Positions 33,686 to 50,155 of a stretch of DNA of 64,000 nucleotides are shown one piece after another. Origin of the DNA: an uncultured Candidatus Rokubacteria bacterium (GTDB lineage: Bacteria; Methylomirabilota; Methylomirabilia; Rokubacteriales; CSP1-6). The DNA is taken from positions 64,001 to 128,000 of the forward strand of contig CAVYTA010000006.1 of the NCBI GenBank assembly GCA_963771355.1, read 5' to 3'. The number at the start of each line of letters is the position of its first letter. Within the stretch, counting starts at the first letter, position 1. The notes under the pieces are model-generated. The model did no database searches, was not told the DNA's origin, and worked only from the letters and a program-made list of their open reading frames with translations. Made by a program: the position numbers and the translations under genes.

Positions 33686-33950
33686 TGTAGGAAAAGCTTT
33701 ACACTTCCGTGGTCCTGCATTAAATGTTGCCTTACTGATTAGCACCCTCGAAAGCGCCCTCACACCCTCGCGGCCTTCCTGGCGCCTCCCGTAGCGCAAG
33801 ACCCGAGCGTCTTGGTACTCCCCAAAGATCCTGGCCCCGTGGAGGGGTCTTTGGATGTAGGGAAAACTTTACATTTCGGCTTTCCTCATTTAATGATGTG
33901 TCATAAGTAGCTGAATATATGAACTGTAGCTTGCTGGCATGGGTTCTGCT
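33686..33950 (+). promoter_or_regulatory. sigma54 promoter with two TGTA-N10-TACA enhancer-like boxes
   Basis: TGGCAT-N5-CTGCT at 33935-33950; TGTAGGAAAAGCTTTACA at 33686 and TGTAGGGAAAACTTTACA at 33856. Confidence 0.75.
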
Positions 33951-33996
33951 CATGCCTGGTCAAAGGCAGCACAAAAGTGACTGGAATGGAGACAAA

Positions 33997-34845
33997 ATGA
34001 GGCCTATAAGGGCACTGGTGGCGGCAGGCGCATTTGCCGCGGTCCTCGGGATGTCGCCGGTGACGGCGATGGCTCTCCCGTTCCTGGTCGAGGTATCAGT
34101 CGGCTGGCTCAACGAGACTGGCCTCTGCACGGGCGGTGGAAGTGCCTGTCTCGGCTTCAGCGGAACGGGTGGATTCGGAGCGGGTAGCTCGACGATCCTG
34201 AACTGGGACGCCGGGTCCACCGCGCTGGACAGCCGCCTGTCGATCGGCGCGCTTCCCGATGCCTCCGCGACCCCTCCGTTCGATGGATTCCGCGCGGGCA
34301 CGATCGATGTGAATCAGACCGTTCGCACCGCCATGATCCGGCACACCAACAATGCCATTCCCCGGGCGGACGAGACGCTCTCCAGCATCACGCTCCGGAC
34401 GCTGCTGAGGATTCTCTCGCCGGATGGGAATACCGAGATCATCGGGGAGGGTACCGGCGGCGACTTCGACGTCTCCATCTCGTTCCTGGAGACGGCGAAT
34501 ACGGCGCCCTGCAACCAGACCAGCAACTCGATCGGGTCGATCTGCGACGATCAGTTCACGTTCATCAGCCTGAATATCGACATCCCCTTCACGTTCGACG
34601 GGCACAGCTACGTGCTGGAGGCGCGCGGGGTACTCAATCCGGATGGCACCCCGGCCTGCGAGGATGCTGGCAACGGGCAGGTCAATTGCCTGACGCAGGA
34701 GAGAGCGATCAGCGATCGCTTCGTCGCCATCACGCTGCGGCAGGTGGACGTACCCGTGCCGGCTCCGGCGAGTCTGCTGCTCCTGGGCCTGGGCCTGCTG
34801 GGTGCGAGTGTCGGGCCGATGATCCGCAAGCGGCTGGCGCCTTAA
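33997..34845 (+). CDS. PEP-CTERM sorted surface protein (THxN-like family)
   Basis: Signal peptide, IRHTNN, six Cys, C-terminal VPAPASLLLLGLGLLG..RKR. Confidence 0.85.
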   Translation: MRPIRALVAAGAFAAVLGMSPVTAMALPFLVEVSVGWLNETGLCTGGGSACLGFSGTGGFGAGSSTILNWDAGSTALDSRLSIGALPDASATPPFDGFRAGTIDVNQTVRTAMIRHTNNAIPRADETLSSITLRTLLRILSPDGNTEIIGEGTGGDFDVSISFLETANTAPCNQTSNSIGSICDDQFTFISLNIDIPFTFDGHSYVLEARGVLNPDGTPACEDAGNGQVNCLTQERAISDRFVAITLRQVDVPVPAPASLLLLGLGLLGASVGPMIRKRLAP

Positions 34846-34919: not shown

Positions 34920-35210
34920 GGTGCGGCTCCTTGCCCCGCCGCGGCTCCTGAGCCTTCAGGACCTGCGTGCGCTTGCCGGGCGCCGCCACGCCTGAATGTG
35001 CGACGCCCCGTAAGGATGACGCACGCCAAGCCACCGTCGCGGCAAGCGCCGGCCGGCGATCAGTATCAGGTAGCCGACTAGATAGATCCCAAAGGACATT
35101 TGTCCCCTCCTAGACCGCCGACATGGAGCTGGTCGCCCGTTCTCTCTTCTTGCCCCGACGCGATCGATCGAGCATCGTGCGAAGGTGCGGCCGGTCGGGC
35201 AGGCCTAGAT

Positions 35211-36927: not shown

Positions 36928-38313
36928 CTATAGCCGAAGCGGAGGATCTTCAGCACCGATGTCGTGGTGGTCGTGGGCGGCAATCTTGAAGAAACGCTCG
37001 GCGTGGCTCGGGTGGACGGAGAGCTGGGTCGCGAGATCGCTCGCGGTGGCGCCGTTCCGGATCGCCAACGTCGCCATCTGGATGAGCTCGGCGCCCGCAT
37101 AGCTGATCATCTGGGCCCCCAGCAGCCGTTCCTGGGCGGCGTCGAACACCAGCTTGAGATACCCGTCGTCTTCCCCGGTGGCGCGGCCGTTCGAGGCCCC
37201 CCGTAGATCCTGGGTCGCGACGTGGCACTTCACGCCGCTGGCCGTTGCCGCCCGGTGGGTCAGGCCGACCCTGGCCACTTCCGGGGTGGTGAAGACGCTC
37301 TGAGGCACGAGCGTGGTGTCGGCGATCAGCTGGTCGCCCAGCAGCGCGTTGTGCGCCGCGAGACGGCCCTCGTACGCGGCCACCGGCGTGAGCTGCGCGT
37401 TGCCGGCGGCATCCCCGGCCGCGTAGATGTGGGCCACCGAGGTGCGGAGATAGGGCGTGACCGCGAGGCCCAGGCGCCCCCTCTCCAGCCCCAGGTGCTG
37501 AGCGCCCAGTGTTTCGGGCCGCCACCGGCGCCCGATGGCCACGCACGCCTGGTCCGCCGCCACCGCGTGAGGCTCGCCGTCTCTCGTGAACCGCGCGGTC
37601 ACGTCGCCTCGTCTTCCCGAGAAGCTCGTGAGCGTGGCGCCGAGGTGAAAGGTGACGCCGCGGCTCTCGAAGATCCTCCTGAGGTATCCGGCCACGTCGG
37701 GGTCGAACCCGGGGAGGATCTCGCCCTCCTGGCCGACGACCACGACCTCGGCTCCGAAGTCGCTGAACGCGCCCGCCATCTCCAGACCGATGACACCCGT
37801 CCCGACGATGACGAGACGTTGCGGGAAGACGGGCAGGAACAGGAGCTCGTCCGAGGTGATCGCCGCTTCGATGCCTGGCACCGCCGGAGCGACGGGGATG
37901 GATCCCGCGGCGATGATGATCCGGTCGCTCCGCAGGGTCGCGTCGTTCACCACGATGGTGTGCGGATCGGCGAACCTCGCTTCGCCGAGGATGATCTCGG
38001 CTCCCGGCCGCGCGAGCGCCGCCGGCAGCGGCTGGAACTCCTTGACGATGTCGTGCTGCCGGCGGATGACCGTCGGCCAGTCCAGGGCGATGGGGCCCGC
38101 CGTCGTGCCGAAGCGTGCTGCATCCTTCGTGATCCGGTGAATCCGCCCAGACCTTACCAAGGCCTTTTTCGGGATTCACCCCCAGTTGACGCACGTTCCG
38201 CCGAGCGGTCCCCGATCGACGAGAGCGACCCGCGCTGCGAGTGTAGCGGCCGCTTTCAATGCATTGATGCCCGCGGCCCCGCCTCCGATGATGACCAGGT
38301 CATAGCGATCCAA
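36928..38313 (-). CDS. Flavoprotein disulfide reductase (GR/LPD/MerA family), probable selenoprotein (in-frame TGA 38176-38178)
   Basis: GGGAGG SD + TTG; YDLVIIGGGAAG, GGTCVNWG-TGA-IPKK all in one frame; GTGVIGLE, IYAAGD, VHPSHAE. Confidence 0.85.
38138..38178 (-). promoter_or_regulatory. Putative bacterial SECIS hairpin
   Basis: UGAAUCC/GGAUUCA lower stem, AGGCCUU/AAGGUCU upper stem, GGU loop starting 18 nt after UGA. Confidence 0.65.
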
Positions 38314-38394
38314 GGCGATCCTCCCTCATGAGTTCGCCCGACGTTCGTCCGACCGTACGCGTCCCGATCGTAACGCGTCCGAGGCGCGCTCCAA

Positions 38395-38413
38395 GGTGGA
38401 CCAAGGTCCAATA
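38395..38413. promoter_or_regulatory. Palindromic operator GGTGGACCAAGGTCCAATA (copy 1)
   Basis: Identical 19-mer at 40556; centre 31.5 bp from the TACGAT -10 of the reductase gene. Confidence 0.7.
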
Positions 38414-38438
38414 GGCGGTCCCGAGGGGGCGGACTAGC

Positions 38439-38755
38439 TGTGAAGTCCCAGGAGGTTCTCCACCCGGGCCATCTCTGCGACGTTGGTGGTTGCGAGTCGA
38501 CCATCACCGCAGAGCCGGAGGCCCGGATGGACATCCATAAGAATGCCCGGACGACGCCGCATAGTCGAGCGGCAATCGTCGTGCGGGTCACCCAGTTGGG
38601 CGAAAGCATCAAGGGTGTGGCGCGGGCGGTCGGTGTCTGCCCCAAGACGGTGCGCAAATGGTTGGCTCGGGCCGGCGAGGGCCTCAGCGACCGCTCCTCG
38701 CGACCGCAGCAGCTCCCGACCGCCACGCCAGCCGCACTGGTCGCGCACGTCGCGC
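38439..38755 (+). mobile_element. IS481-family 5' remnant (left end + transposase N-terminus)
   Basis: TGT end preceded by an ACTAGC target-like site; MDIHKNARTTP..TVRKWL..LSDRSSRP. Confidence 0.85.
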
Positions 38756-39772
38756 CGTCTTGGCGCGGAGCGCGATGAAGGCGCCGGGGCCCACCGCGCA
38801 GAGGAGGTCGACCTCCTCGAGCGCCTGACGGGCCACCTTGGTGTAAATCCCGTTGTTGCCGGGGTGATCGGAGATGGTGCCGAGGACGAGGATCTTGCGT
38901 GATGCCCGCGCGCTCCGCAGGAAGGCCAGGACCGGCGGGAGCGTGCCGAGCGAGGCCTTGAGATCGTCGCGAACAAAGGTTACCCCGTCCGCGAGCGCGA
39001 CGGGATTCATGCGGCCCTTGAAGGGCTCGACCTCACCGATCGCCCGGGCGGCATCGGACAGGGGAATGCCCATCTCGAGCCCGACCGCGACGGCGGCCAG
39101 TGCCGCCGAAACCCAGTGGGTGCCGCAGAGCTGGGTGCGCACCGGGGCCCGCTCGCCGGCATGGACGAGAGTGAAGGACAGACGGTCCGGCCAGGCGCCC
39201 GTCACGTGCTCGGCGCGAAGCTCCGCCGAGGGATCGAGGCCGAAGGTACGTACGCGGCCCGGGAACCCCTCGCGCATCGCGAGTACGCGCGGGTCGTCGG
39301 CATTGAGGATCGCGACGCCATCGGGGGGAAGAGCCCGGATGAGCTTGCCCTTCTCGGCGGCGATGGCGTCGAGCGAGCCAAACGCCGTGTAGTGATCGGT
39401 GGACACGCTGGTCACCACCCCGATGCGTGGCCGGAGCAAGGCAAGGGGCCGGTCGAGCGAGCCCGGCCCGATGTTCGCGCCGATCTCGACGACCCGGAAC
39501 TGGTCGCGGGTCCGGACGGAGAGCACGTTGCGCGCGATGTCGTGCGCATAGTTGCCGGATCCCCGTCCCACGTTGCCGCGCAGGCGCGTGGCGAGCACGG
39601 CGGCGAGCAGGTCCTTGGTGGTGGTCTTGCCCGCGCTGCCGGTCACCCCGATGAAGACCGTGCCGCGGAGCCTCGAGCGGTGGCCGCGCGCGACCTGCCA
39701 GTAGGCGAGCTGGTAGGCGGGGCGCAGGACTCGCCAGTACAACCCCGTGGCCAGCCGGACCGGAGACAGCAT
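38684..39772 (-). pseudogene. MurF-like Mur ligase family protein, C-terminally truncated at the IS junction (~38760)
   Basis: IGVTGSAGKTTTK, EKGKL, ILNADD, GRM, VLGTI; no N-terminal MurF domain. Confidence 0.7.
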
Positions 39773-39863
39773 CGTCCTTCTATTCTAGAGCAGCGATGCG
39801 GAGCGAGTCGAGACGGGAACCGGGGAAGGCGCGCTTTTTTGAGTAGCCGCCCAGAGGATGATG

Positions 39864-40441
39864 TTACTTGCCACCGAAGGCCGATTCGAGTTGGTGAATC
39901 ATGTCGGCCTCCGCGGCGGAAACCTTGCCGACTCCGAGGAGGCCCCCGCTCGCGCTCGCGATGGCCCGAGCGCGCTCGATCAGGTCGGAGCGCAGAGCCC
40001 GGACCTGCTCCGGGGTCATGTGCTCGCACAGGCCCTCGACCATGTGGATCCACGCCGAAAGCAGCTTCGGGTCAGGCCGCCGCTCGAGCCAGCTCTGCAG
40101 GAGGGAGTGGTCCGTCGAGCTCGGGGCGATGCCGGACTTCTCGGCGCGCTCGAGGATCTGCCGGCGCTCTCGATCGTCGATCGAACCGTCCGCCCACGCC
40201 ACCTCGACCAGGGGGACCAAGGCGAGCGCCGCCACGACCTCGGCCCGGATGCCGAGCTGGAACAGCTTGTCGAGGATGGCCTCGTTCTTGATCCCGGAGA
40301 CCTTCCCCGAGGGCCTCGCGAGAAGCCGCTTTGTCCTGGAGCTCCCGGAGCCGCGCGGTAAGCCGCTGATCCTCTTTACGGAAGAACTCATCCTCGAGCG
40401 TGCGGACCTTGTCCCCGAGGAATCTGCGGAGTCTCAGCCAT
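39864..40441 (-). CDS. Hypothetical TerB-like protein, frameshifted (~40410, ~40305)
   Basis: AGGAGG SD; TLEDEFFRKED then LVPLVEVAWADGSIDDRER. Confidence 0.65.
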
Positions 40442-40555
40442 GGTGTCCTCCTGGGCGGCGGGGTGGGTAATGTGGGGTCATCATATCAGGAGGGCCACGC
40501 GACTACCTATCGAGCGTGTCGTCATCGCCGCCACGTCTGCCCTGGTCCCGACCCG

Positions 40556-40574
40556 GGTGGACCAAGGTCCAATA
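40556..40574. promoter_or_regulatory. Palindromic operator (copy 2)
   Basis: GGTGGACCAAGGTCCAATA in a divergent intergenic region. Confidence 0.7.
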
Positions 40575-40640
40575 TGATGCTGGACTATGGGTGCGTCAAA
40601 ATCGAAAGAGTCGCCGCCGGAAGTCATGGGAGGACCGTTC

Positions 40641-41174
40641 ATGCGGGTGTTCATCGTTGTGATGCTCTCATTCGCCTTGGCCGCGCCGGCGTACGGCCAG
40701 ATCCATGTCGACATCGGCATCCATCTGCCGGCGCCACCTCGGCTCGTCATCGTACCGGAAGTCCGAGCGGTCCAGTACGTACCATCCGCCCCCGCGAACC
40801 TCTTCTTCTACGACCGGCAGTACTGGGCCTTTGCCAACGGCGGCTGGCACGTGAGCCGCGGATACAACGGCCCCTGGATCGTCATCGCGCCGAACATCGT
40901 GCCTCGCCCCGTTCTGCTCGTGCCGGTGAACTACTACCACGTTCGTCCCGGCCACTGGAATCAATGGCAGCGGCAGCAGCCTCCCCGCTGGGGCAATGAG
41001 TGGGGACGCGAGTGGGCGGAGAAGCGACAGTGGCGGGAACGGCATGACGATCAAGATCGGGGCCGCGACCGGGATCACGATAAACGCGACAACAAGCGCG
41101 ATGACAAACGTGACGACAAGCGTGACGACCGGCGCGGTGAGAAGGGCAAGGGAGGCCACGGGCGGGGCAACTAG
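40641..41174 (+). CDS. Secreted Pro/Trp-rich hypothetical protein with DDKR-repeat tail
   Basis: SD GGGAGG, signal peptide, VDIGI.LPAPP, YNGPW. Confidence 0.75.
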   Translation: MRVFIVVMLSFALAAPAYGQIHVDIGIHLPAPPRLVIVPEVRAVQYVPSAPANLFFYDRQYWAFANGGWHVSRGYNGPWIVIAPNIVPRPVLLVPVNYYHVRPGHWNQWQRQQPPRWGNEWGREWAEKRQWRERHDDQDRGRDRDHDKRDNKRDDKRDDKRDDRRGEKGKGGHGRGN

Positions 41175-41226
41175 AGAGTGGCGTGACCGCGATGCGTGGT
41201 GTAACCCGAGCGGAAGAGAGGCCACG

Positions 41227-41385
41227 ATGGACAAATGCCAGGCGTGCGACAAGAGCTTGATCGAGGGAATGCATCGATTCTGCGGCGACGAGTGCCGTCG
41301 CCTCTTCGGAGAGGGACTCAGAAAGGGCACCGCCAGCCATCCTGGCCGCACGGTGGCTCGGCGGCGGCGCCGGCGGGGCGGCTGA
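41227..41385 (+). CDS. 52-aa putative zinc-finger microprotein
   Basis: CQAC..FCGDEC, Arg-rich tail, GAGAGG SD. Confidence 0.5.
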   Translation: MDKCQACDKSLIEGMHRFCGDECRRLFGEGLRKGTASHPGRTVARRRRRRGG

Positions 41386-41389
41386 ATCC

Positions 41390-41860
41390 TTGACCCTCGC
41401 GAACGCGATCGATGAGCTGGCGGACGCCGGCTTCGTCGAGCACTTTGGCGTGCGCGATGGTGCGCTGCGATCATTCGACAGCGGAAGGCGATTCAGCGCT
41501 CTTGAGCTGGTGATCCGGGAATACCATCGCTTCGAGGGGGTCTCGGATCCGGACGACATGTCGATCGTCTATGCGATCGAAGGTCAAGGTGGTGTTCGCG
41601 GAACGCTGGTCGATGCCTACGGGGCCTACTCCGACGCAGCGGTGAGCGCCTTCCTCCAGGGCGTGCCGATTCGGGGAACTTCCCGGTTCGGCGGAGGGGC
41701 GGGGGGGCGACCGTGGGTATTCGACCGGCCGGGCAAGATCCGTGGGCGGAATCCAGTGCGCCAGCCGTCACCGCTCGGGAGCTACCACCATGGCTTCCCG
41801 GTGCCGGTCACGAAGGATCCGTGGCACGACGAAGGGGGCGAGAGCGGCTCGACCCCTTAG
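41390..41860 (+). CDS. Conserved hypothetical protein (family often labelled 'phosphoribosylpyrophosphate synthetase')
   Basis: HRFEGVSDPDDMSIVYAIE..GTLVDAYG. Confidence 0.75.
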   Translation: MTLANAIDELADAGFVEHFGVRDGALRSFDSGRRFSALELVIREYHRFEGVSDPDDMSIVYAIEGQGGVRGTLVDAYGAYSDAAVSAFLQGVPIRGTSRFGGGAGGRPWVFDRPGKIRGRNPVRQPSPLGSYHHGFPVPVTKDPWHDEGGESGSTP

Positions 41861-42114
41861 ACGCGCGCGGTCCGTCCCAGGGTCGCCAGATAGGCGGTCA
41901 GCAGGACGAGCGAGCCGATGATCGCCATGACGAACCCGACCGGATCGCCGTCCCCGTACCAGCCGATCAGGCGACCCAGGAAGCCGCCCGTGAGCGCCCC
42001 CACGATTCCGAGCAGGGACGTGATGAACAAGCCGCCTGGATCGCGCCTCAGCCTCAAGAACTTGGCGGCGACGCCGGCGACCAGACCCAGGACGATCCAT
42101 CCCAAAATATACAT
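41857..42114 (-). CDS. GlsB/YeaQ/YmgE family stress membrane protein
   Basis: WIVLGLVAG.AAK..DPGG..LLGIVGA..GG. Confidence 0.9.
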   Translation of the reverse strand: MYILGWIVLGLVAGVAAKFLRLRRDPGGLFITSLLGIVGALTGGFLGRLIGWYGDGDPVGFVMAIIGSLVLLTAYLATLGRTARV

Positions 42115-42202
42115 CCGGTACTCCCCCCTCACTGTCTGCCACTCAACGAGAGAGCGCGGTGCTCTTGGTCATCACGCTAGCAGGGGGTGGGAGGGCCGCC
42201 TA

Positions 42203-42254
42203 GTGGACGTTGGTCCAATAGCGATCGCGCGCCGCGCCATTGGACCATGGTCGT
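42203..42254. promoter_or_regulatory. Two palindromic operators (copies 3 and 4)
   Basis: GTGGACGTTGGTCCAATA and ATTGGACCATGGTCG. Confidence 0.65.
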
Positions 42255-42303
42255 AGGGGTTGGCATTGCCGCAGGGTCCGGACCGGGCTATAGTCGCCAG
42301 TAG

Positions 42304-44712
42304 ATGTTGCGTTTGATGTCGGTCCCCGAGCGCGCACGCCCGGGCCGCAGAGTGCTTCTTCTGGCTCTCCTCGCGCTCCTCTGCTGTGCTTCCTCGAGTC
42401 CCGCGCGCGACGCGAAACGGGCGAGAATCGTGGTGCTCCTGTTTCCGGAGGCGCGACTGCTGCCGGAGATCCTTGCCGTGGAGGGCGCGATTCGCCCGAC
42501 CCTCGACCCGGAAGGAGCGGTCAACTTCTACACCGAGTATCTGGACCTCTCCCGGCTGTCGGATGCGCAGGATGAGCAACAGATGATCGCCTTTCTGCGC
42601 GAGAAGTATGCGAGTCGGCAGGTCGACCTGATCATGCCGGTCGCGTTTCCGACCCTGCGCTTCTTTCTGAAACACCGCGCGGCGCTCTTTCCCGGGGTGC
42701 CGGCCGTCTTCTGCGCGGCGAACCTGGATGCGGTCGCGGGGCTCGAGCTCGGGTCCGCCATCACGGGGGTCCGACTCCCTTCGGAGTGGGGGTCGACGCT
42801 GGAGGCCGCGCTCGCGCTCCAGCCGGCGACGCGGCGGGCGGTGGTGATCACGGGAACCTCGGAGATCGACCAGAACTTGCAAGCAGCGGCCGCTCACGAT
42901 CTCGCCCGATACGGCACTCGGATCGAGGTCGCGTATCTGGCGGGCCTGCCGATCGCGCGTCTGCTCGAGGAAGTGGCCGTCTTGCCGAAGGACAGCATCG
43001 TGTTGTTCGTGTCGCTGCTTCGGGACCAGGCGGGACGTCTGTTCACCGACCCGGAAGCGGTCTCCCTGATCGCCCGCGCCTCGAGTGTGCCGGTGTACAG
43101 CTGGTCGGAGACCCATCTCGGCCATGGGATCGTGGGCGGGCGCCTGGCCAGCTTCGAGACCCAGGGGACCCGGGCGGCCGAGCTCGCGGTGCGGGTGCTC
43201 CGCGGAGAGCGACCGGAGACGCTTCCCGTCGTCGACGGCGGCAAGACGGCGTACATGTTCGACGATCGGGAGCTGCGGCGGTGGGGTCTCAGCGCCAGCC
43301 GGCTACCGGCCGGCAGCATCGTGCGATACGAGGAGGTCTCGCTGTGGTCTCTGTACCGATGGAACATCGTCGGCGCGGGAGCCCTGGTCGCCGCGTTGGC
43401 GCTCCTCAGCGCGGGGCTGCTGGTCGAGCGCACGGGCCGGAGGCGCGCGGAGCTCTCGCTCGGCGAGCGCCTTCGCTTCGAGACGCTGCTGGCGGAGCAG
43501 GCCGCCACGTTCAGCCGGGTCTCCGGGACCGACGTCGATCGAGAGATCGAGCGGGCGCTTCGACGGATCGCGGACTTTCTTGCCGTGGACTGGAGCGGTT
43601 TGACGGAGTACTCCGAGGACAGCCAGACGGCGCGGGTCACGCACTGGTGGATGGCCGAGGGGATGGATCCGCCCCCGGTGGCACTTGGATTCGACGAGAT
43701 TCCGTGGAGCGTGACCCAGCTGCGACAGGGAGAGACGGTGAGGTTCACGCAGATCGAGGAGCTGCCCGAGAGTGAAGCGGCGGTGGACCGGCAGACCTAT
43801 CGTCGGTTAGGGGTCAAGTCGCAGGTCGCGATCCCGTTGACCGTAGAGGGGACGGTGGTCGGGGCCCTCGCGTTCAGCGCGGTGGCGACCGAGCGTACCT
43901 GGCGGGACGAGTTCGTCCAGCGCCTCCAGCTTCTCGGCGAGGTCTTCGCCAATACCTTGTCGCGTCGACGAGCGGAGATGGAAGGCGAACGACTCCGGCA
44001 GGATCTCGCTCACGTCGGGCGCGTCGCCACGGTAGGGGAGCTGACCACCTCGCTCGCGCACGAGCTCACCCAGCCCCTGACGGCGATCCTGGCCAATGCC
44101 CAGGCCGCTCGGCGCATCCTCGAGTCTGATGGGCCCGATCTCGCGGAGCTCCGCGCGATCGTGGGGGATATCGTCGATGACGACAAGCGCGCGAGTGAGG
44201 TGATCAACCGGCTACGGGGCTTCCTCAAAAAGGGCACCCTCGAGCGTTCGAGCGTGGACATGGGTGATCTGGTCGGGCAGATGGCAAGGCTGGTGGCCGG
44301 CGATGCCGTCCTCCGAAACGTGGTCACCCGGCTGGAGCTGGCCCCTGACCTCCCTCTCGTGCATGGGGACCGAGTACAGCTTCAGCAGGTCGTTCTGAAC
44401 CTGATCCTCAACGGATTGGACGCGATGCGGGATGGGAAGCCGATGAACCGCACGCTCGTGCTTCGAACGGCTCGCGGGGATGGGGGCTCCGTCGAGGTGA
44501 CGGTCCAGGATTCTGGGGCCGGCATCGAGAAGGCCGATCTCGACAACATCTTCGAGGCCTTCTACACGACCAAGGCCGATGGGCTGGGGATGGGACTGGC
44601 GATCGTCCGCTCCATTGTTGAGGCACACGGAGGCCGGGTGGGAGCCCGGAACAACCCCGAGGGGGGGGCCTCGTTCTCGTTCACGCTGCCTGCCGTCACC
44701 GAAGCGCCCTGA
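42304..44712 (+). CDS. Sensor histidine kinase (periplasmic ABC-substrate-binding-like, TM, GAF, FixL-type HisKA/HATPase)
   Basis: SLAHELTQPL, QLQQVVLNLILN, DSGAGI, FYTTK..GLGMGL. Confidence 0.9.
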   Translation: MLRLMSVPERARPGRRVLLLALLALLCCASSSPARDAKRARIVVLLFPEARLLPEILAVEGAIRPTLDPEGAVNFYTEYLDLSRLSDAQDEQQMIAFLREKYASRQVDLIMPVAFPTLRFFLKHRAALFPGVPAVFCAANLDAVAGLELGSAITGVRLPSEWGSTLEAALALQPATRRAVVITGTSEIDQNLQAAAAHDLARYGTRIEVAYLAGLPIARLLEEVAVLPKDSIVLFVSLLRDQAGRLFTDPEAVSLIARASSVPVYSWSETHLGHGIVGGRLASFETQGTRAAELAVRVLRGERPETLPVVDGGKTAYMFDDRELRRWGLSASRLPAGSIVRYEEVSLWSLYRWNIVGAGALVAALALLSAGLLVERTGRRRAELSLGERLRFETLLAEQAATFSRVSGTDVDREIERALRRIADFLAVDWSGLTEYSEDSQTARVTHWWMAEGMDPPPVALGFDEIPWSVTQLRQGETVRFTQIEELPESEAAVDRQTYRRLGVKSQVAIPLTVEGTVVGALAFSAVATERTWRDEFVQRLQLLGEVFANTLSRRRAEMEGERLRQDLAHVGRVATVGELTTSLAHELTQPLTAILANAQAARRILESDGPDLAELRAIVGDIVDDDKRASEVINRLRGFLKKGTLERSSVDMGDLVGQMARLVAGDAVLRNVVTRLELAPDLPLVHGDRVQLQQVVLNLILNGLDAMRDGKPMNRTLVLRTARGDGGSVEVTVQDSGAGIEKADLDNIFEAFYTTKADGLGMGLAIVRSIVEAHGGRVGARNNPEGGASFSFTLPAVTEAP

Positions 44713-44731
44713 TCGACTCGCGGCCTGGCTA

Positions 44732-44776
44732 TGGGACGAAAGGCCAATAGCCCTGGACCCGCGCGCCCACTAGAGT
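44732..44776 (+). promoter_or_regulatory. Operator copy 5 plus -10 of the desaturase gene
   Basis: GGACGAAAGGCCAATA centred 31.5 bp before TAGAGT. Confidence 0.55.
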
Positions 44777-44795
44777 AGAGGGGAGGAGGATACCG

Positions 44796-45539
44796 ATGCT
44801 CGATCACATGTGGCTTGCCCCGCTCGTTGCCCTGGCGCTCACCCAGATCGCCGCCATCGCGACCTCCGTCTACCTGCACCGGGGACTCGCGCACCGAGCG
44901 TTACGGTTGCATCCGGTCACGGACGGGTGTTTTCGCGCCCTGCTCTGGCTCACGACGGGTCAGAGCCGCCGGGAGTGGGTCGCCGTGCATCGGAAGCATC
45001 ACACCTTCACCGACCGGGCGGGCGACCCCCACAGTCCTCAGGTATTTGGCTTCTGGAATATCCAGTTCTGGAACGTTTTCTATTACATGCGGGAAGCGCG
45101 GAACCCCGAGACGCTTCGAACGTTTGCCCCGGATATCACCGAGGACTGGCTGGATCGGACGGTGTTTTCCTGGGGGCTGGGCGGCCTCGCGCTCGGCATC
45201 GCGCTGCTCTGCCTGGTGTTTGGAGTCTGGGTCGGGCTCGCCGCCGGACTGGTGCACGCGATCCTGTATGTCTTCGTGCTGGCTCCGCTCATCAACGGCC
45301 TGGGTCACTGGCGGGGGGCGAAGAACTTCGACAACACCGCCTTCAATTCCAGGACCCTCGCCTGGTTGACGGGCGGCGAGAGTCTCCACAACAATCATCA
45401 CGCCCACCCGCGCGCGCCGAAGTTCAGCATGCGACGGTTCGAGTTCGATCCCTCGTGGGTCGTGATCCGCTGTCTCGCCGCGGTTGGGCTGGTGGAGATC
45501 GTCGGCGCGCCGGTGAAGCTTACCGGCGCTTCGACCTGA
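44796..45539 (+). CDS. Fatty acid (acyl-CoA delta-9-type) desaturase
   Basis: His boxes HRGLAH, HRKHH, HNNHH; DPHSP. Confidence 0.9.
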   Translation: MLDHMWLAPLVALALTQIAAIATSVYLHRGLAHRALRLHPVTDGCFRALLWLTTGQSRREWVAVHRKHHTFTDRAGDPHSPQVFGFWNIQFWNVFYYMREARNPETLRTFAPDITEDWLDRTVFSWGLGGLALGIALLCLVFGVWVGLAAGLVHAILYVFVLAPLINGLGHWRGAKNFDNTAFNSRTLAWLTGGESLHNNHHAHPRAPKFSMRRFEFDPSWVVIRCLAAVGLVEIVGAPVKLTGAST

Positions 45540-45681: not shown

Positions 45682-46545
45682 ATGCCGACCAAGAATTCCA
45701 GCCTTGCCCACGTCCTCGCGACGCTCCGTGCCCAGCTGGAGATCGTCCGCGCCAGCGAGGCCGGCACCCGGGCGGGCCGGGACCCCGAGGACCTGCACAA
45801 GATGCGGGTCGCGGTCCGCCGTCTCCGGGCCATTCTCCGGGCGAGCCGGCCGCTGTTCGACGCGAAGTGGGTGAAGGGGCTTCGGAGCGAGCTGGACTGG
45901 CTCGGGACCGCGCTGGGAGTGGCGCGGGACCTCGACGTGCTTCGGGGATACCTGGGCTCGGAGCTCGCCTCCCTCGAGCGGGCCGAGCAGAAGGCGGGCC
46001 AGAGGCTGCTCCGTCGGCTCGATGCCGACCGCGCCCGGGCCAGGGGGGCCCTGCGTGAGGTCCTCGCTGGCCCGCGATACGCCAAGCTCCTGGCCCGCCT
46101 GAAGGCGTCTTTCGCCGCCCCCCCCGTCAGCTCAATGGAGGTCTCGCTTCCCGGCAGTGCCGCCGCCGAGTTCAAGAAGCTTCGCCGGGCGGTCAAGGGG
46201 CTCCCCGGCCACCCGAGTGCCGACGACCTCCACGAGGTCCGGATCAAGGTGAAGCGGGCGCGGTACGCCGCCGAGCTGGTGGAGGCCGCGGGTAGTCGGG
46301 GCACACGGTTCCTGGATCAGGCGAAGACGGTTCAAGACATTCTTGGAGAACACCAGGACGCCGTGGTACTCGAAGAGTATCTACACGAAGTCATCGGCAG
46401 CCGAGAGGCCAAGCATGCGCTCGAGCAGCAGCTTCTCAAACGGCAGCGCAAGCGTCGAAAGAAGACGCGCGCCGCGTTTTTCGAGGAGTGGCCGAGGCTC
46501 GAGCGCCGTGGCCGGAAGGCATGGAGCGCTGCTCCCGTGCCATAG
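45682..46545 (+). CDS. CHAD domain (polyphosphate-binding) protein
   Basis: LHKMRVAVRRLR, RDLDV, LHEVRIKVKRARY, QDILGEHQD. Confidence 0.92.
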   Translation: MPTKNSSLAHVLATLRAQLEIVRASEAGTRAGRDPEDLHKMRVAVRRLRAILRASRPLFDAKWVKGLRSELDWLGTALGVARDLDVLRGYLGSELASLERAEQKAGQRLLRRLDADRARARGALREVLAGPRYAKLLARLKASFAAPPVSSMEVSLPGSAAAEFKKLRRAVKGLPGHPSADDLHEVRIKVKRARYAAELVEAAGSRGTRFLDQAKTVQDILGEHQDAVVLEEYLHEVIGSREAKHALEQQLLKRQRKRRKKTRAAFFEEWPRLERRGRKAWSAAPVP

Positions 46546-46551
46546 CGCCTC

Positions 46552-47049
46552 GTGAACCTCCTGCTGATTCGCCACGCCCCCGCCGTTCCCAACGGAAACG
46601 GCGGCACCCGTGATCACGACCGTCCTCTCACGCGAAAAGGCCGGACCCGCTTCCGGCAAGCGGCCCGAGGGCTGGCCCGGATCGCGGGGCGACCTGACGT
46701 CCTGCTGACGAGCCCTCTCGCCCGTGCCCGCGCAACTGCTGACATCGCCGCGGCCGCCTTCAAGCGGGTGACCCCGAAGATCGAGCCCGCGCTCGGGCAG
46801 GACGACGTCGACGTGCTGGTGACCGCGCTGAAGAAGTACGGTCCTGACGCGACGGTTGCGCTGGTCGGGCACGAGCCCACGCTCTCAGGCCTCCTGGCTC
46901 ACCTGCTCGGCATGCACCAGGGGGACGACCGCTTCGCCTTCAAGAAAGGCGGCGCGGCCCTGGTCCACCTGCCGGACGGACCCTCGATCCCCGGTCAGCT
47001 CAGGTGGTTTGTAAAGCCGCGAATTTTAAGGTCTCTAGGCTCCCACTAG
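46552..47049 (+). CDS. sixA: SixA-like phosphohistidine phosphatase
   Basis: LIRHA, RPLT, SPLARA..T, VGHEP, FKKGG. Confidence 0.85.
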   Translation: MNLLLIRHAPAVPNGNGGTRDHDRPLTRKGRTRFRQAARGLARIAGRPDVLLTSPLARARATADIAAAAFKRVTPKIEPALGQDDVDVLVTALKKYGPDATVALVGHEPTLSGLLAHLLGMHQGDDRFAFKKGGAALVHLPDGPSIPGQLRWFVKPRILRSLGSH

Positions 47050-47115
47050 CTCAGCCCGCCTGGCCGTCGGGACCCATGCTACTCTGAGGTCCTTTCCTTG
47101 TGAGGTAGTCAGCCT

Positions 47116-48090
47116 GTGGCACTAACAAACGGAGCCGGCTTGCGCGGTAGCCCCACCTCGGACCTGGTCGCCATCGTCGATCTGGGCTCAACCGCCGTCC
47201 GATTTCTTCTCGCGCAGATCCGCCCGAGCTCGGGGTTCCGCATCCTCGCCCAGGAGCGGGTGCCGACCCGGCTCGGAGGTGGCGCGCCCGGGACACTGCC
47301 CAGACGGGCCATCGCCAAGACCCTGCGAGCCGTGCATCGCTTCTTCGCCCGCTACTCGCCCCATGGGCAAGGGCCGCGCGTCGTCGCCATCGCGACCTCG
47401 GCGGTCCGGGATGCACGCAATCCCGAGCGACTCCTCGATCCCCTGCGGCGGAACGAGGGCATCGAGGTGCAGGTGCTCAGCGGGCGGGAGGAGGCACGCC
47501 TGGGGGTCATGGCGGCCCTCGAAAGCCTACCCTTCACCAATGGCGTCGTGGCGGACCTGGGGGGAGCGAGCCTGCAGCTCAGTCGGGTGCGCCACCGCCG
47601 CGTGGTCTCGAGCGCCAGCCTGCCGCTGGGGTCGGTCCGGACCACCCGTAACTTCCTGAAACACGATCCACCCACCCCGCGAGAGGTGCGCGAGCTCCGC
47701 ACCGAGATCCGGGAGCGGCTCCGGACCGCCATGCCGCCCGCCAATCACGGCGAGATCCTGGTCGGCATGGGGGGAACGGTTCGCACCCTTGCCAGCATGC
47801 ACCTGCGCGCCAACCCGGGGGAGCGCAAGCACCGGCACGGGCTCGTGCTGCAGCAGTCGGATGTCACCGCCATTCGCGAGCGGCTGGAGGCCCTGTCCTT
47901 TCGGGGGCGGCGCAAGATCCGGGGACTGAAGGCCGAGCGCGCCGACATCATTCTGGCCGGCGCCATGGTCATCGAGGATGTGATGGTCAGCGGAGGGTAT
48001 CTCCGTCTCGTGGTCTGCACCCGGGGAGTGCGGGACGGGTTGCTTCTCCACGAGGCCACCAGGAAAAGGAACTCACATGGGCTCCGATAA
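47116..48090 (+). CDS. ppx: Ppx/GppA exopolyphosphatase
   Basis: VDLGS, ATSAVRDA, LSGREEA, DLGGAS, RADII, GVRDG. Confidence 0.88.
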   Translation: MALTNGAGLRGSPTSDLVAIVDLGSTAVRFLLAQIRPSSGFRILAQERVPTRLGGGAPGTLPRRAIAKTLRAVHRFFARYSPHGQGPRVVAIATSAVRDARNPERLLDPLRRNEGIEVQVLSGREEARLGVMAALESLPFTNGVVADLGGASLQLSRVRHRRVVSSASLPLGSVRTTRNFLKHDPPTPREVRELRTEIRERLRTAMPPANHGEILVGMGGTVRTLASMHLRANPGERKHRHGLVLQQSDVTAIRERLEALSFRGRRKIRGLKAERADIILAGAMVIEDVMVSGGYLRLVVCTRGVRDGLLLHEATRKRNSHGLR

Positions 48091-50155
48091 ATTCGTGAAC
48101 CGGGAACTGTCGTGGCTGGAATTCAACCGGCGTGTCCTCGAAGAGGCGCAGGACCCGAGCGTGCCGCTCCTGGAGCGACTCAAGTTCCTCTCGATCTTCA
48201 GCTCGAACCTGGACGAGTTTTTCATGGTCCGCGTGGCCGCGCTGAAGCGGCGCATCCATGCCGGGGAGCAGACCTCGACCCCCGACGGGCTCACCCCGCT
48301 GCAGACGATGGTGGGGGTGTCGGCCCGGGTGCACGAGCTCGTCGACGCCCAGCACCGCTCATTCCTCCAGGATATCCAGCCGCTCCTCGCCCGCGAGGGA
48401 ATCCTGCTCCTGCGTCCAAAGGAGATCACCGAGGAGCAGCGGCGATTCCTTGAGGACTATTTCCGCCGCATGCTCCTCCCGGTGGTGACCCCGCTCGCGG
48501 TGGACCCGGGGCATCCCTTCCCGTATCTCGGCAACCGCTCGCTGTGCCTGGTGGCGTCGATGCGCCCGTCGGCGCCGTCCGGCTTCCCGCACAGCCAGCT
48601 CTCGATCATCCACATCCCGAGCCAGGCGCTGCCGCGATTCATCGCGCTCCCCGACCCGGACGGCAAGCGCGCGTTCATGCTCCTCGAGGACGTGATTCGT
48701 CTGCACCTGCCGACCATCTACAACGGCTACGACATCGTCTCGAGCCACGCGATTCGAGTCACCCGAGACGCCGATCTCCCCGACCTGCCGACCCGGCCCT
48801 CGGACCTCCTGAGCGGCATCGAGCGGAGCCTGCGCGAGCGTCGGCTGGGAGACGCGGTGCGCCTGCAGCACGACGGCGATCTCCCGCCGGAGATCCTGGC
48901 CCTGCTGCTCGATGAGCTGGAGCTGCAGGCCGACGACGTCTACGAGGGCGCGGGCTTCGCCGCTTTCTCGGATCTCCTGCAGCTCTACTCCGCGCTCGAG
49001 ATCCCGCGTCTCAAGGACCCGCCGCGACCGCCGCACCCGGTGGCCGCGCTGGAGAGCACCTCCGATATCTGGGGCGCCATCCGGGAGCGCGACATCCTCG
49101 TGCACCATCCGTATCAGAGCTTCGACAGCGTCACCCGGTTCGTGCAGGAGGCCTCCAGCGATCCGAAGGTGCTGGCCATCAAGATGACGCTCTACCGGGT
49201 CAGTCCCGCGTCGCCGATCGCGCACGCCTTGCAGACCGCGGTGGAGAACGGCAAGGAGGTGGCGGTGCTCGTCGAGCTGCAGGCCCGATTCGACGAGGAG
49301 GCGAACATCCGCTGGGCCCGCGCGCTCGAGGAAGTGGGCGCCCACGTGGTGTACGGCTTCCCCGGATTCAAGACGCACTGCAAGGCGTGTCTGGTCGTCC
49401 GGCAGGAGTCGGACGGCATCCGGCGGTACTGCCACCTCGCCACCGGGAACTACAATGTCCGGACCGCGGGGGTCTATAGCGACGTGGGGCTCTTCACCGG
49501 CCGGCGCCAGTTCGGCGAGGACCTGACCCAGCTCTTCAACCTCCTCACCGGCTACACGCGCCCGACCGGGTTCCACCACCTCATCCTCGCGCCCACCACG
49601 ATGCGTGACGCGTTCGTGGAACGGATCCGCCGCGAGGCGGAGCATGCCCGGGCGGGCCGCCCGGCGCGCATCATCGCCAAGATGAACGCCCTGGTCGACC
49701 GGAGCCTGATCGAGGAGCTGTACGCGGCGAGCGCGGCCGGGGTGCAGATCGATCTTCTCGTCCGCGGCATCTGCTGCCTGCGCCCGGAGGTCCCGAATCT
49801 CTCGGAGAACATCCGCGTCGTCTCGATCGTGGACCGGTATCTCGAGCACTCGCGCATCTACTGCTTCGAGAACGCCGGGCAGCCTGAGTACCTGCTGGCC
49901 TCGGCGGACTGGATGCCCCGCAACCTCGACCGGCGGGTGGAGGTAGCCTTCCCAGTCCTGGACCCAGCCCTGCACCGGCAGATCCGCGAGATCCTCGAGA
50001 CCCAGCTCGCCGACACGGCGAAGGCGCGCCGCATTCTCCCCGACGGTACCTCGGAGCGCGTCCGGTCGAACGGCCGCCCCGCCCTGCGCTCCCAGGAGCG
50101 TCTCTACGAGCTGATCGGGAACGGAGGCACCGGCGCGGAGGCCCCCGAGCGCTGA
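48077..50155 (+). CDS. ppk1: Polyphosphate kinase 1
   Basis: NRELSWLEFN, SNLDEFFMVR, HHPY, ARFDEE, TGNYN, SADWMPRN. Confidence 0.96.
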   Translation: MGSDKFVNRELSWLEFNRRVLEEAQDPSVPLLERLKFLSIFSSNLDEFFMVRVAALKRRIHAGEQTSTPDGLTPLQTMVGVSARVHELVDAQHRSFLQDIQPLLAREGILLLRPKEITEEQRRFLEDYFRRMLLPVVTPLAVDPGHPFPYLGNRSLCLVASMRPSAPSGFPHSQLSIIHIPSQALPRFIALPDPDGKRAFMLLEDVIRLHLPTIYNGYDIVSSHAIRVTRDADLPDLPTRPSDLLSGIERSLRERRLGDAVRLQHDGDLPPEILALLLDELELQADDVYEGAGFAAFSDLLQLYSALEIPRLKDPPRPPHPVAALESTSDIWGAIRERDILVHHPYQSFDSVTRFVQEASSDPKVLAIKMTLYRVSPASPIAHALQTAVENGKEVAVLVELQARFDEEANIRWARALEEVGAHVVYGFPGFKTHCKACLVVRQESDGIRRYCHLATGNYNVRTAGVYSDVGLFTGRRQFGEDLTQLFNLLTGYTRPTGFHHLILAPTTMRDAFVERIRREAEHARAGRPARIIAKMNALVDRSLIEELYAASAAGVQIDLLVRGICCLRPEVPNLSENIRVVSIVDRYLEHSRIYCFENAGQPEYLLASADWMPRNLDRRVEVAFPVLDPALHRQIREILETQLADTAKARRILPDGTSERVRSNGRPALRSQERLYELIGNGGTGAEAPER

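Follow-up and report, generated by a model that had tools for sequence, protein, structure and literature searches.

A predicted operator of StyR/FixJ-type response regulators, with an EL222- and DosR-like core, upstream of many envelope genes in an uncultured Rokubacteria bacterium

The DNA boxes of several regulators with a helix-turn-helix (HTH) domain have been described. EL222, the LOV-HTH protein of Erythrobacter litoralis, has the operator consensus RGNCYWWRGNCY (PMC10521638) and activates a sigma-70 promoter from a box that overlaps the -35 element (PMC5001607); DosR/DevR of Mycobacterium tuberculosis has the box TTSGGGACTWWAGTCCCSAA (PMC2275270) and contacts its bases through Lys179, Lys182 and Asn183 (PMC4082495); and the FixJ site is an imperfect palindrome of 16-18 bp, TAAGTAATTTCCCTTA (PMC4999443). 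Here we describe an 18-bp palindrome, ATWGGACCWWGGTCCWAT, that occurs at five places in a 64,000-nucleotide stretch (C6:64001-128000, the window in what follows) of an uncultured Candidatus Rokubacteria genome (G000, 5.53 Mb, 70% GC). From sequence analysis we consider it very probable that the palindrome is the operator of three StyR/FixJ-type response regulators, which would activate sigma-70 promoters from about -43.5.

An earlier note on this DNA had placed five palindromes at 38395, 40556, 42203, 42239 and 44734, the first two as the same 19-mer, and we find all five there, each between genes and the two copies identical. The motif under the name the note gave it, GGAC-N4-GTCC, is no more frequent than chance: allowing one mismatch, we count 47 matches in the window where 57.5 would be expected, and its 107 perfect copies in the genome stand near the low end of the 94-247 counted for other spacer lengths from 0 to 11. 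The bare core, being enriched in neither the window nor the genome, was dropped as a motif. The signal resides in the 18-bp palindrome, a heptamer inverted repeat with a 2-bp spacer that adds an A/T centre and AT flanks. A symmetric matrix, seeded with the five window sites and iterated, yields 42 genomic sites of at least 17 bits (consensus ATAGGACCWWGGTCCTAT), whereas three block shuffles yield 2-7 and ten column permutations 0-12, and leave-one-out scores are at least 17.8 bits. All 42 sites lie between genes in a genome that is 86% coding according to our own gene caller (5012 genes), and matches of at least 18 bits are exclusively intergenic, whereas those of 6-12 bits fall mostly within coding DNA. 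Another site is present within 15 kb of 34 of the 42. The window sites, scored with the matrix and without strand, are as follows:

38395..38412 (centre 38403.5): site A, 18-bp palindrome upstream of the selenoenzyme gene, 23.0 bits
40556..40573 (centre 40564.5): site B, between divergent genes (left, DUF533-like; right, secreted 177-aa protein), 21.2 bits
42202..42219 (centre 42210.5): site C, 23.6 bits
42239..42256 (centre 42247.5): site D, upstream of the sensor kinase gene, 25.4 bits
44731..44748 (centre 44739.5): site E, upstream of the desaturase gene, 22.0 bits

The palindromes keep a near-constant distance from predicted -10 hexamers. Spacings of 31.5 bp from site centre to TACGAT (38372), TAGCGT (42179) and TAGAGT (44771), and of 41.5 bp to TATAGT (42289) for the kinase gene, had been proposed before and are recovered here by a spacing scan. 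Site B at 40556 has no TAnnnT at 31.5 or 32.5 bp, the best candidate there, judged from the sequence, being an imperfect CAAAAT at 32.5 bp. The predicted hexamers are:

38367..38372, minus strand: TACGAT of the reductase gene, 31.5 bp from site A
40597..40602, plus strand: CAAAAT, candidate imperfect hexamer, 32.5 bp from site B
42174..42179, minus strand: TAGCGT, 31.5 bp from site C
42289..42294, plus strand: TATAGT, 41.5 bp from site D, an extra helical turn away
44771..44776, plus strand: TAGAGT, 31.5 bp from site E

Throughout the genome the 84 arms of the 42 sites carry TAnnnT 11 times at 31.5 bp and 8 times at 32.5 bp, and at most twice at every other position. These 19 arms, which belong to 18 sites, compare with about 0.5 expected for both positions together, and they are found among arms that face a gene start (19/61) and never among those that face away (0/23). 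Weak intergenic sites (8-17 bits, n=21) show no peak in -10 spacing. The spacing was also examined in a held-out set, composed of loci L161-L205 of other genomes (picked for pattern matches) and nine distant loci, where 56 of 109 sites have TAnnnT at 31.5 or 32.5 bp (41 + 18 arms) and any other position has at most four. A minor spacing class at 41.5-43.5 bp comprises eight held-out arms; a homolog of the window kinase in G058, with TAGAGT at 42.5 bp, lends weight to the 41.5 bp read for the kinase itself.

When 41 held-out arms are oriented towards the -10, A at +7.5 and T at +8.5 are present in all of them, G at +10.5 in 32, C at +12.5 in 23 and the two central A positions in 32 and 35, a directionality that the symmetric matrix does not impose. 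In our own genome T at +8.5 is found in 17 of 19 arms and the central bias is weak. If the spacer is 17 bp long, the -35 begins at +8.5, so that the last T of the palindrome coincides with its first base and the AATA tail in the earlier description of the motif is in part a -35 element; the -35 hexamers themselves match TTGACA poorly. Taking the first T of the -10 as -12, the box centre falls at -43.5 or -44.5, and this is class II activator geometry. The proposal of an activator box for a NarL/FixJ-family protein, centred near -43, is supported by this position, which is deduced from the -10 hexamer. In four RNA assemblies compared, which consist of assembled contigs and cannot show transcript starts, contigs end at 42147 and 42308, near predicted starts, and another assembled contig spans the desaturase promoter (44690-44992). 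Among 24 RNA runs, all available as contigs, none contains half of the sampled words.

Some observations concern individual copies of the box. The perfect palindrome GGACATTTGTCC at 35094-35105 is a fourth perfect core copy in the window and is absent among the 46 matrix hits of at least 14 bits; it sits 250 bp downstream of 33919-34845 (plus strand), encoding a secreted protein with a PEP-CTERM-like C-terminal sorting signal, VPAPASLLLLGLGLLG. On the rightward arm of site A an IS481 remnant (38439-38778) begins within a would-be -10 (TAGCTG, 31.5 bp) and adjoins a MurF-like gene (38684-39772, minus strand) at its truncated end, and the IS481 insertion may have destroyed a divergent promoter at this site. 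Sites at C6:11337 and C7:213752 are followed by near-identical promoter sequence, which suggests a duplicated promoter segment.

Which protein reads the box? The genome has six GerE-type hits, three of which are receiver-HTH (REC-GerE) proteins with the recognition helices EKTVKVHRAR, EKTIKVHRGR and EKTIKIHRGR. These candidates score best against FixJ/TtrR models and StyR. For the first of them the best scored model is FixJ (NF006900, 212 bits, cut-off 255) and the closest solved structure is StyR (PDB 1yio, E 3e-59), and the likely regulator is therefore of the StyR/FixJ type, not the DosR/NarL type. Sites accompany all three genes, and regulator homologs in relatives carry sites at the same places:

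C5:188166-188795: first candidate regulator, REC-GerE with EKT[VI]K helix; site 50 bp upstream, another just downstream before a single-domain receiver
C7:215729-216373: second candidate regulator, same architecture and helix type; site upstream
C7:223238-223945: third candidate regulator, same architecture and helix type; site downstream

Three kinases of a matching type are present, and we infer their pairing with the regulators. One is encoded in the window:

42304..44712, plus strand: sensor histidine kinase with a periplasmic ABC-binding-protein-like domain, GAF, HisKA and HATPase; gene downstream of site D

This window kinase is a likely cognate kinase of the regulators, and the box is found also upstream of its homologs in G058, G043 and G190; its GAF domain has no match in PDB. 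The second, a MASE1-GAF kinase, is divergent from the third regulator gene. The third is a FixL-like PAS kinase whose PAS domain has FixL and DosP as its best PDB matches and retains an R-H-D stretch, the histidine of which we take to be the haem ligand of FixL. Its gene (C7:108269-111544) carries a frameshift near 108636, within the part for the ATPase domain, which may be an assembly error or mark a pseudogene; it lies directly beside tRNA-Sec and near selA and selB. A plasmid search found relatives below 60% identity in 367 records.

Occurrence of the box follows that of the regulator across the phylum. With a 16-bp pattern and one mismatch allowed, we scanned 134 other genomes of at least 90% completeness, 61 with the regulator and 73 without. 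Those with it average 6.6 matches, 32 of them having at least five, and those without it average 1.1, with a maximum of four; within genus g27 the two genomes that have the regulator show 20 and 15 matches, and the three that lack it 0, 0 and 0. In a distant set of 80 named loci, which includes other phyla, the matrix gives 17 sites in 11 loci, compared with averages of 1.75 in shuffles and 4.4 in column permutations. Here the sites go with the recognition helix: where it is of the form xKT[VI]K, 7 of 12 loci have a site, as do 4 of 68 with other helices, two of those four having Arg at that position. In accordance, when palindromes that have a -10 at 31.5 or 32.5 bp were sought without the matrix, 15 basic-helix loci gave seven candidates, all of them this box, and the remaining 65 loci gave eight, none of them this box. 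This search did not recover the box at 36 loci with non-basic E-x-K helices (StyR type), nor did a distinct motif emerge for E[IV]TVK or QRTVE regulators. On a quick, unrooted tree of 111 rows helix types are clustered (7 changes vs 34 when shuffled), but the same tree did not bear out the basic-K helix as one clade.

How does this system relate to those already described? The earlier note had called the motif undescribed. Its core in fact fits the published EL222 consensus: 23 of the 42 sites match the 12-bp consensus exactly, 16 with one mismatch and three with two. This consensus alone has 253 matches in the genome, only 50 of them intergenic, and the box here goes beyond it, with ATW/WAT flanks and a near-fixed A and T at N positions. 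Among HTH structure matches StyR is best and EL222 (PDB 8a5r, 3p7n) next, and the EL222 helix SEKTVKMHRG compares with SEKTVKVHRA here, but the input domain is a phospho-receiver here and a LOV domain in EL222. The likeness to the DosR/DevR box that had been noted is also upheld, for the 12-bp core of that box too fits RGNCYWWRGNCY; its 20-bp form is flanked by TTSG...CSAA, however, in place of ATW...WAT. The kinases here belong to the HisKA type and take their input through periplasmic, MASE1 or PAS domains, whereas the DosR system has haem-GAF sensors, DosS and DosT, and unlike in the DosR regulon no universal-stress or small heat-shock protein is found among the annotated site neighbours. 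StyS/StyR of Pseudomonas and NodW-like systems share the receiver-HTH architecture, StyR being the closest solved full-length relative, yet the StyR helix, EVTVK, differs from EKT[VI]K at position 2. FixLJ of rhizobia belongs to the same family and one FixL-like PAS kinase is present here, but the regulator score is below the FixJ cut-off, the box does not resemble the FixJ site TAAGTAATTTCCCTTA, the helix of FixJ, SPRT[VI]EV, differs from EKT[VI]K, and the FixJ regulon is a few genes as compared with 42 sites. The system would thus act like EL222 and DosR on DNA and is a member of neither, because it has no LOV domain and because its flanks, regulator subfamily and sensors differ from those of DosR. 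A literature search, with figure logos, supplements and most subscription journals outside its reach, found no description of this regulon or of this regulator subfamily. The regulon and the helix rule look uncharacterised; the mechanism is ordinary and the core is published.

The mechanism we propose is as follows. Membrane kinases of the matching type, the window kinase among them, would phosphorylate the regulators, and phosphorylated dimers are predicted to bind the box. Each dimer would read RGNCY half-sites by means of two lysines common to EL222 and DosR, the DosR lysines presumably corresponding to the two lysines of EKTVK, and would contact RNA polymerase beside the -35. Sites upstream of a kinase, of one regulator and of single-domain receivers point to feedback loops. 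Most of the output would serve the envelope and general stress (lipoproteins, amidase, MlaC, DegP, porins, RND pump, aquaporin Z, GlsB, YdiK, DUF3300/DUF2950), and some of it metabolism (frdCAB, sat, transaldolase operon, desaturase, selenoenzyme). Probably the signal arises in the periplasm or is sensed at the membrane, and oxygen input by way of the FixL-like kinase is possible. On a wider scale we lean, with some reserve, towards a single recognition code, in which an EKT[VI]K helix reads RGNCYWWRGNCY and which is common to EL222, DosR and an uncharacterised, cross-phylum, phosphorylation-controlled subfamily. The same proposal holds that in this phylum the code serves a conserved, island-borne envelope-stress regulon, that the same box exists in Acidobacteriota, Desulfobacterota, Verrucomicrobiota and some Pseudomonadota, that the box is fused into the -35, and that the CxxxxU reductase was recruited in some lineages. 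Such a system gives an abundant, uncultured lineage of soil bacteria a regulon that is open to testing, and ties many unknown lipoproteins and DUF genes to one two-component system. It also suggests that a single residue may serve to predict the operators of StyR/FixJ-type regulators, and offers candidate natural promoters that EL222 may activate.

The genes next to window sites B, C and E include:

40641..41174, plus strand: Trp-rich secreted protein, tail of charged repeats, without a Pfam match; probable target of site B
41857..42114, minus strand: small membrane protein, GlsB/YeaQ/YmgE (transglycosylase-associated); target of site C
44796..45539, plus strand: fatty-acid desaturase-family membrane protein; target of site E

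A homolog of the GlsB/YeaQ/YmgE gene in G142 also has the box upstream. By a crude hydrophobic-segment predictor applied to approximate gene starts, a signal-like or membrane start segment is present in 27 of the 42 direct targets and in 547 of 2177 other operon-first genes (25%; p 1.4e-7). Annotation of 86, 43 and 28 proteins selected from site loci, a part of the genes there, identifies as neighbours of sites MlaC, an AmiC-type amidase, an OprD porin, DUF481, DegP, an RND pump and aquaporin Z, together with YdiK, DUF308, DUF3300/DUF2950, an Lnb-like protein, CopD, a binding protein and numerous small lipoproteins; metabolic neighbours include frdCAB, sat, a transaldolase operon, a glycosidase and SulP-PPK2. 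Of 86 downstream hits in other genomes, 40 correspond to one of the 42 direct targets (among 5012 genes); the single-domain receivers are the most common, followed by the regulator, the kinase, YdiK and two secreted proteins of unknown function. The selenoenzyme, the desaturase and GlsB, first suggested as members of a redox/stress regulon, are kept as predicted members, but "redox regulon" is too narrow a name because most direct targets are envelope-type (27/42). An envelope and general-stress regulon is the description we narrowly favour.

A family of lipoproteins of about 80 aa (CATSEEWAEW...WWG) without a Pfam hit occurs at C5:189418-189678, C4:29876-30136, C6:1969690-1969953 and C7:214222-214452, and its homologs are repeatedly downstream of the box in relatives.

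The same regulators and the same mechanism could also serve a regulon whose main task, as in FixLJ or DosRST, is to respond to oxygen or redox state. We think this unlikely, though several observations speak for it: one of the three kinases has a FixL/DosP-like PAS domain with the R-H-D stretch, boxes precede frdCAB, sat and the selenoenzyme gene, cydAB is situated within the largest site cluster, and the box core matches that of DosR. Yet the gene of that kinase has a frameshift in this assembly, the other two sense through periplasmic-binding or MASE1 domains and the window GAF is without a PDB match, no site is upstream of cydAB, the nearby site facing DUF481, and the targets are dominated by envelope genes, the reductase box being found in 3 of 23 loci. 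Doubts of another kind concern whether the regulators read the box at all. Sites upstream of a regulator gene fit equally well a model in which an unlinked regulator of another family or an alternative sigma factor reads it and the response regulators are simply regulon members; the directional centre of the motif in held-out promoters (AA in 32 and 35 of 41) is like that of a promoter element; and G012 and G153 have four matches each without the regulator. We hold such a factor to be improbable, given that the motif tracks the sequence of the recognition helix and not just the presence of a regulator (7/12 vs 4/68), that EL222, with the same helix, is reported to bind this consensus in vitro (PMC10521638), and that the -10 is TAnnnT, of the housekeeping sigma-70 type. 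A regulator that represses by covering the -35, for which the overlap of the box with the -35 position would speak, as would the ability of an EL222 box inside a core promoter to repress (PMC10521638 and PMC5001607), is highly improbable: the box is upstream of the -35 and abuts it, outside the stretch from -35 to -10, the -35 hexamers resemble TTGACA poorly, and a spacing fixed within 1 bp, plus a weak class one turn further, suits activation. That the sites are mobile-repeat remnants or chance matches might be thought from their clustering (34/42 within 15 kb) and from the identical 19-mer of sites A and B, but flanks are unrelated at nearly all sites, and neither the fixed -10 spacing nor the gene-facing orientation nor the co-occurrence with the regulator would be expected; this explanation is largely refuted and its probability is close to nil.

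Several results weigh against an operator read by the three StyR/FixJ-type regulators, which we nevertheless prefer. A strict TAnnnT at 31.5 or 32.5 bp is missing from 24 of the 42 sites, and the starts given by our gene caller are approximate. The counts among relatives ignore kinship; four of these genomes (G014, G051, G066 and G172) have the regulator and zero pattern matches, although G014 nevertheless has a matrix site beside the regulator gene, and G012, as said, reaches four matches with no such regulator. One of the column-permuted controls for the distant set gave 20 sites, more than the 17 observed, and 5 of the 12 loci with a matching helix are without a site within the examined flanks.

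The gene at site A deserves separate mention. It encodes a predicted selenoprotein, with these features:

36928..38313, minus strand: class I flavoprotein disulfide reductase, 461 aa, TTG start, active site CVNWG-U-IPKK
38176..38178, minus strand: in-frame TGA, the predicted selenocysteine (Sec) codon, at the second active-site Cys position (CxxxxC to CxxxxU)
38149..38165, minus strand: hairpin like a selenocysteine insertion sequence (SECIS), with a GGU loop, about 10 nt 3' of the TGA

The reading of this TGA as selenocysteine gains support from 23 other homologous loci, 17 of which have TGA and six TGC. The TGA is conserved across family f1, and selA, selB and tRNA-Sec are found in the genome. 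A comparable hairpin is present in most TGA-bearing homologs, its folding z-score (-0.09) being no stronger than that of shuffles. Among the 23 loci the box is upstream of the reductase gene in only three, all within the closest four and with the -10 at 33.5 bp, and those three genomes all have the regulator. The selenoenzyme is thus a well-supported but peripheral, lineage-specific member of the regulon and does not belong to its core. A CxxxxU flavoprotein reductase is absent from the 119-family selenoprotein table of PMC13188914, and our literature search found no description of one; the reductase is arguably more novel than the regulon.

The desaturase gene is closely followed by a putative polyphosphate cluster (45682-50155) in which a CHAD gene is followed by genes that by sequence are SixA-, Ppx- and Ppk1-like, and elsewhere in the genome PPK2 and a polyphosphate glucokinase-like gene are found near sites.

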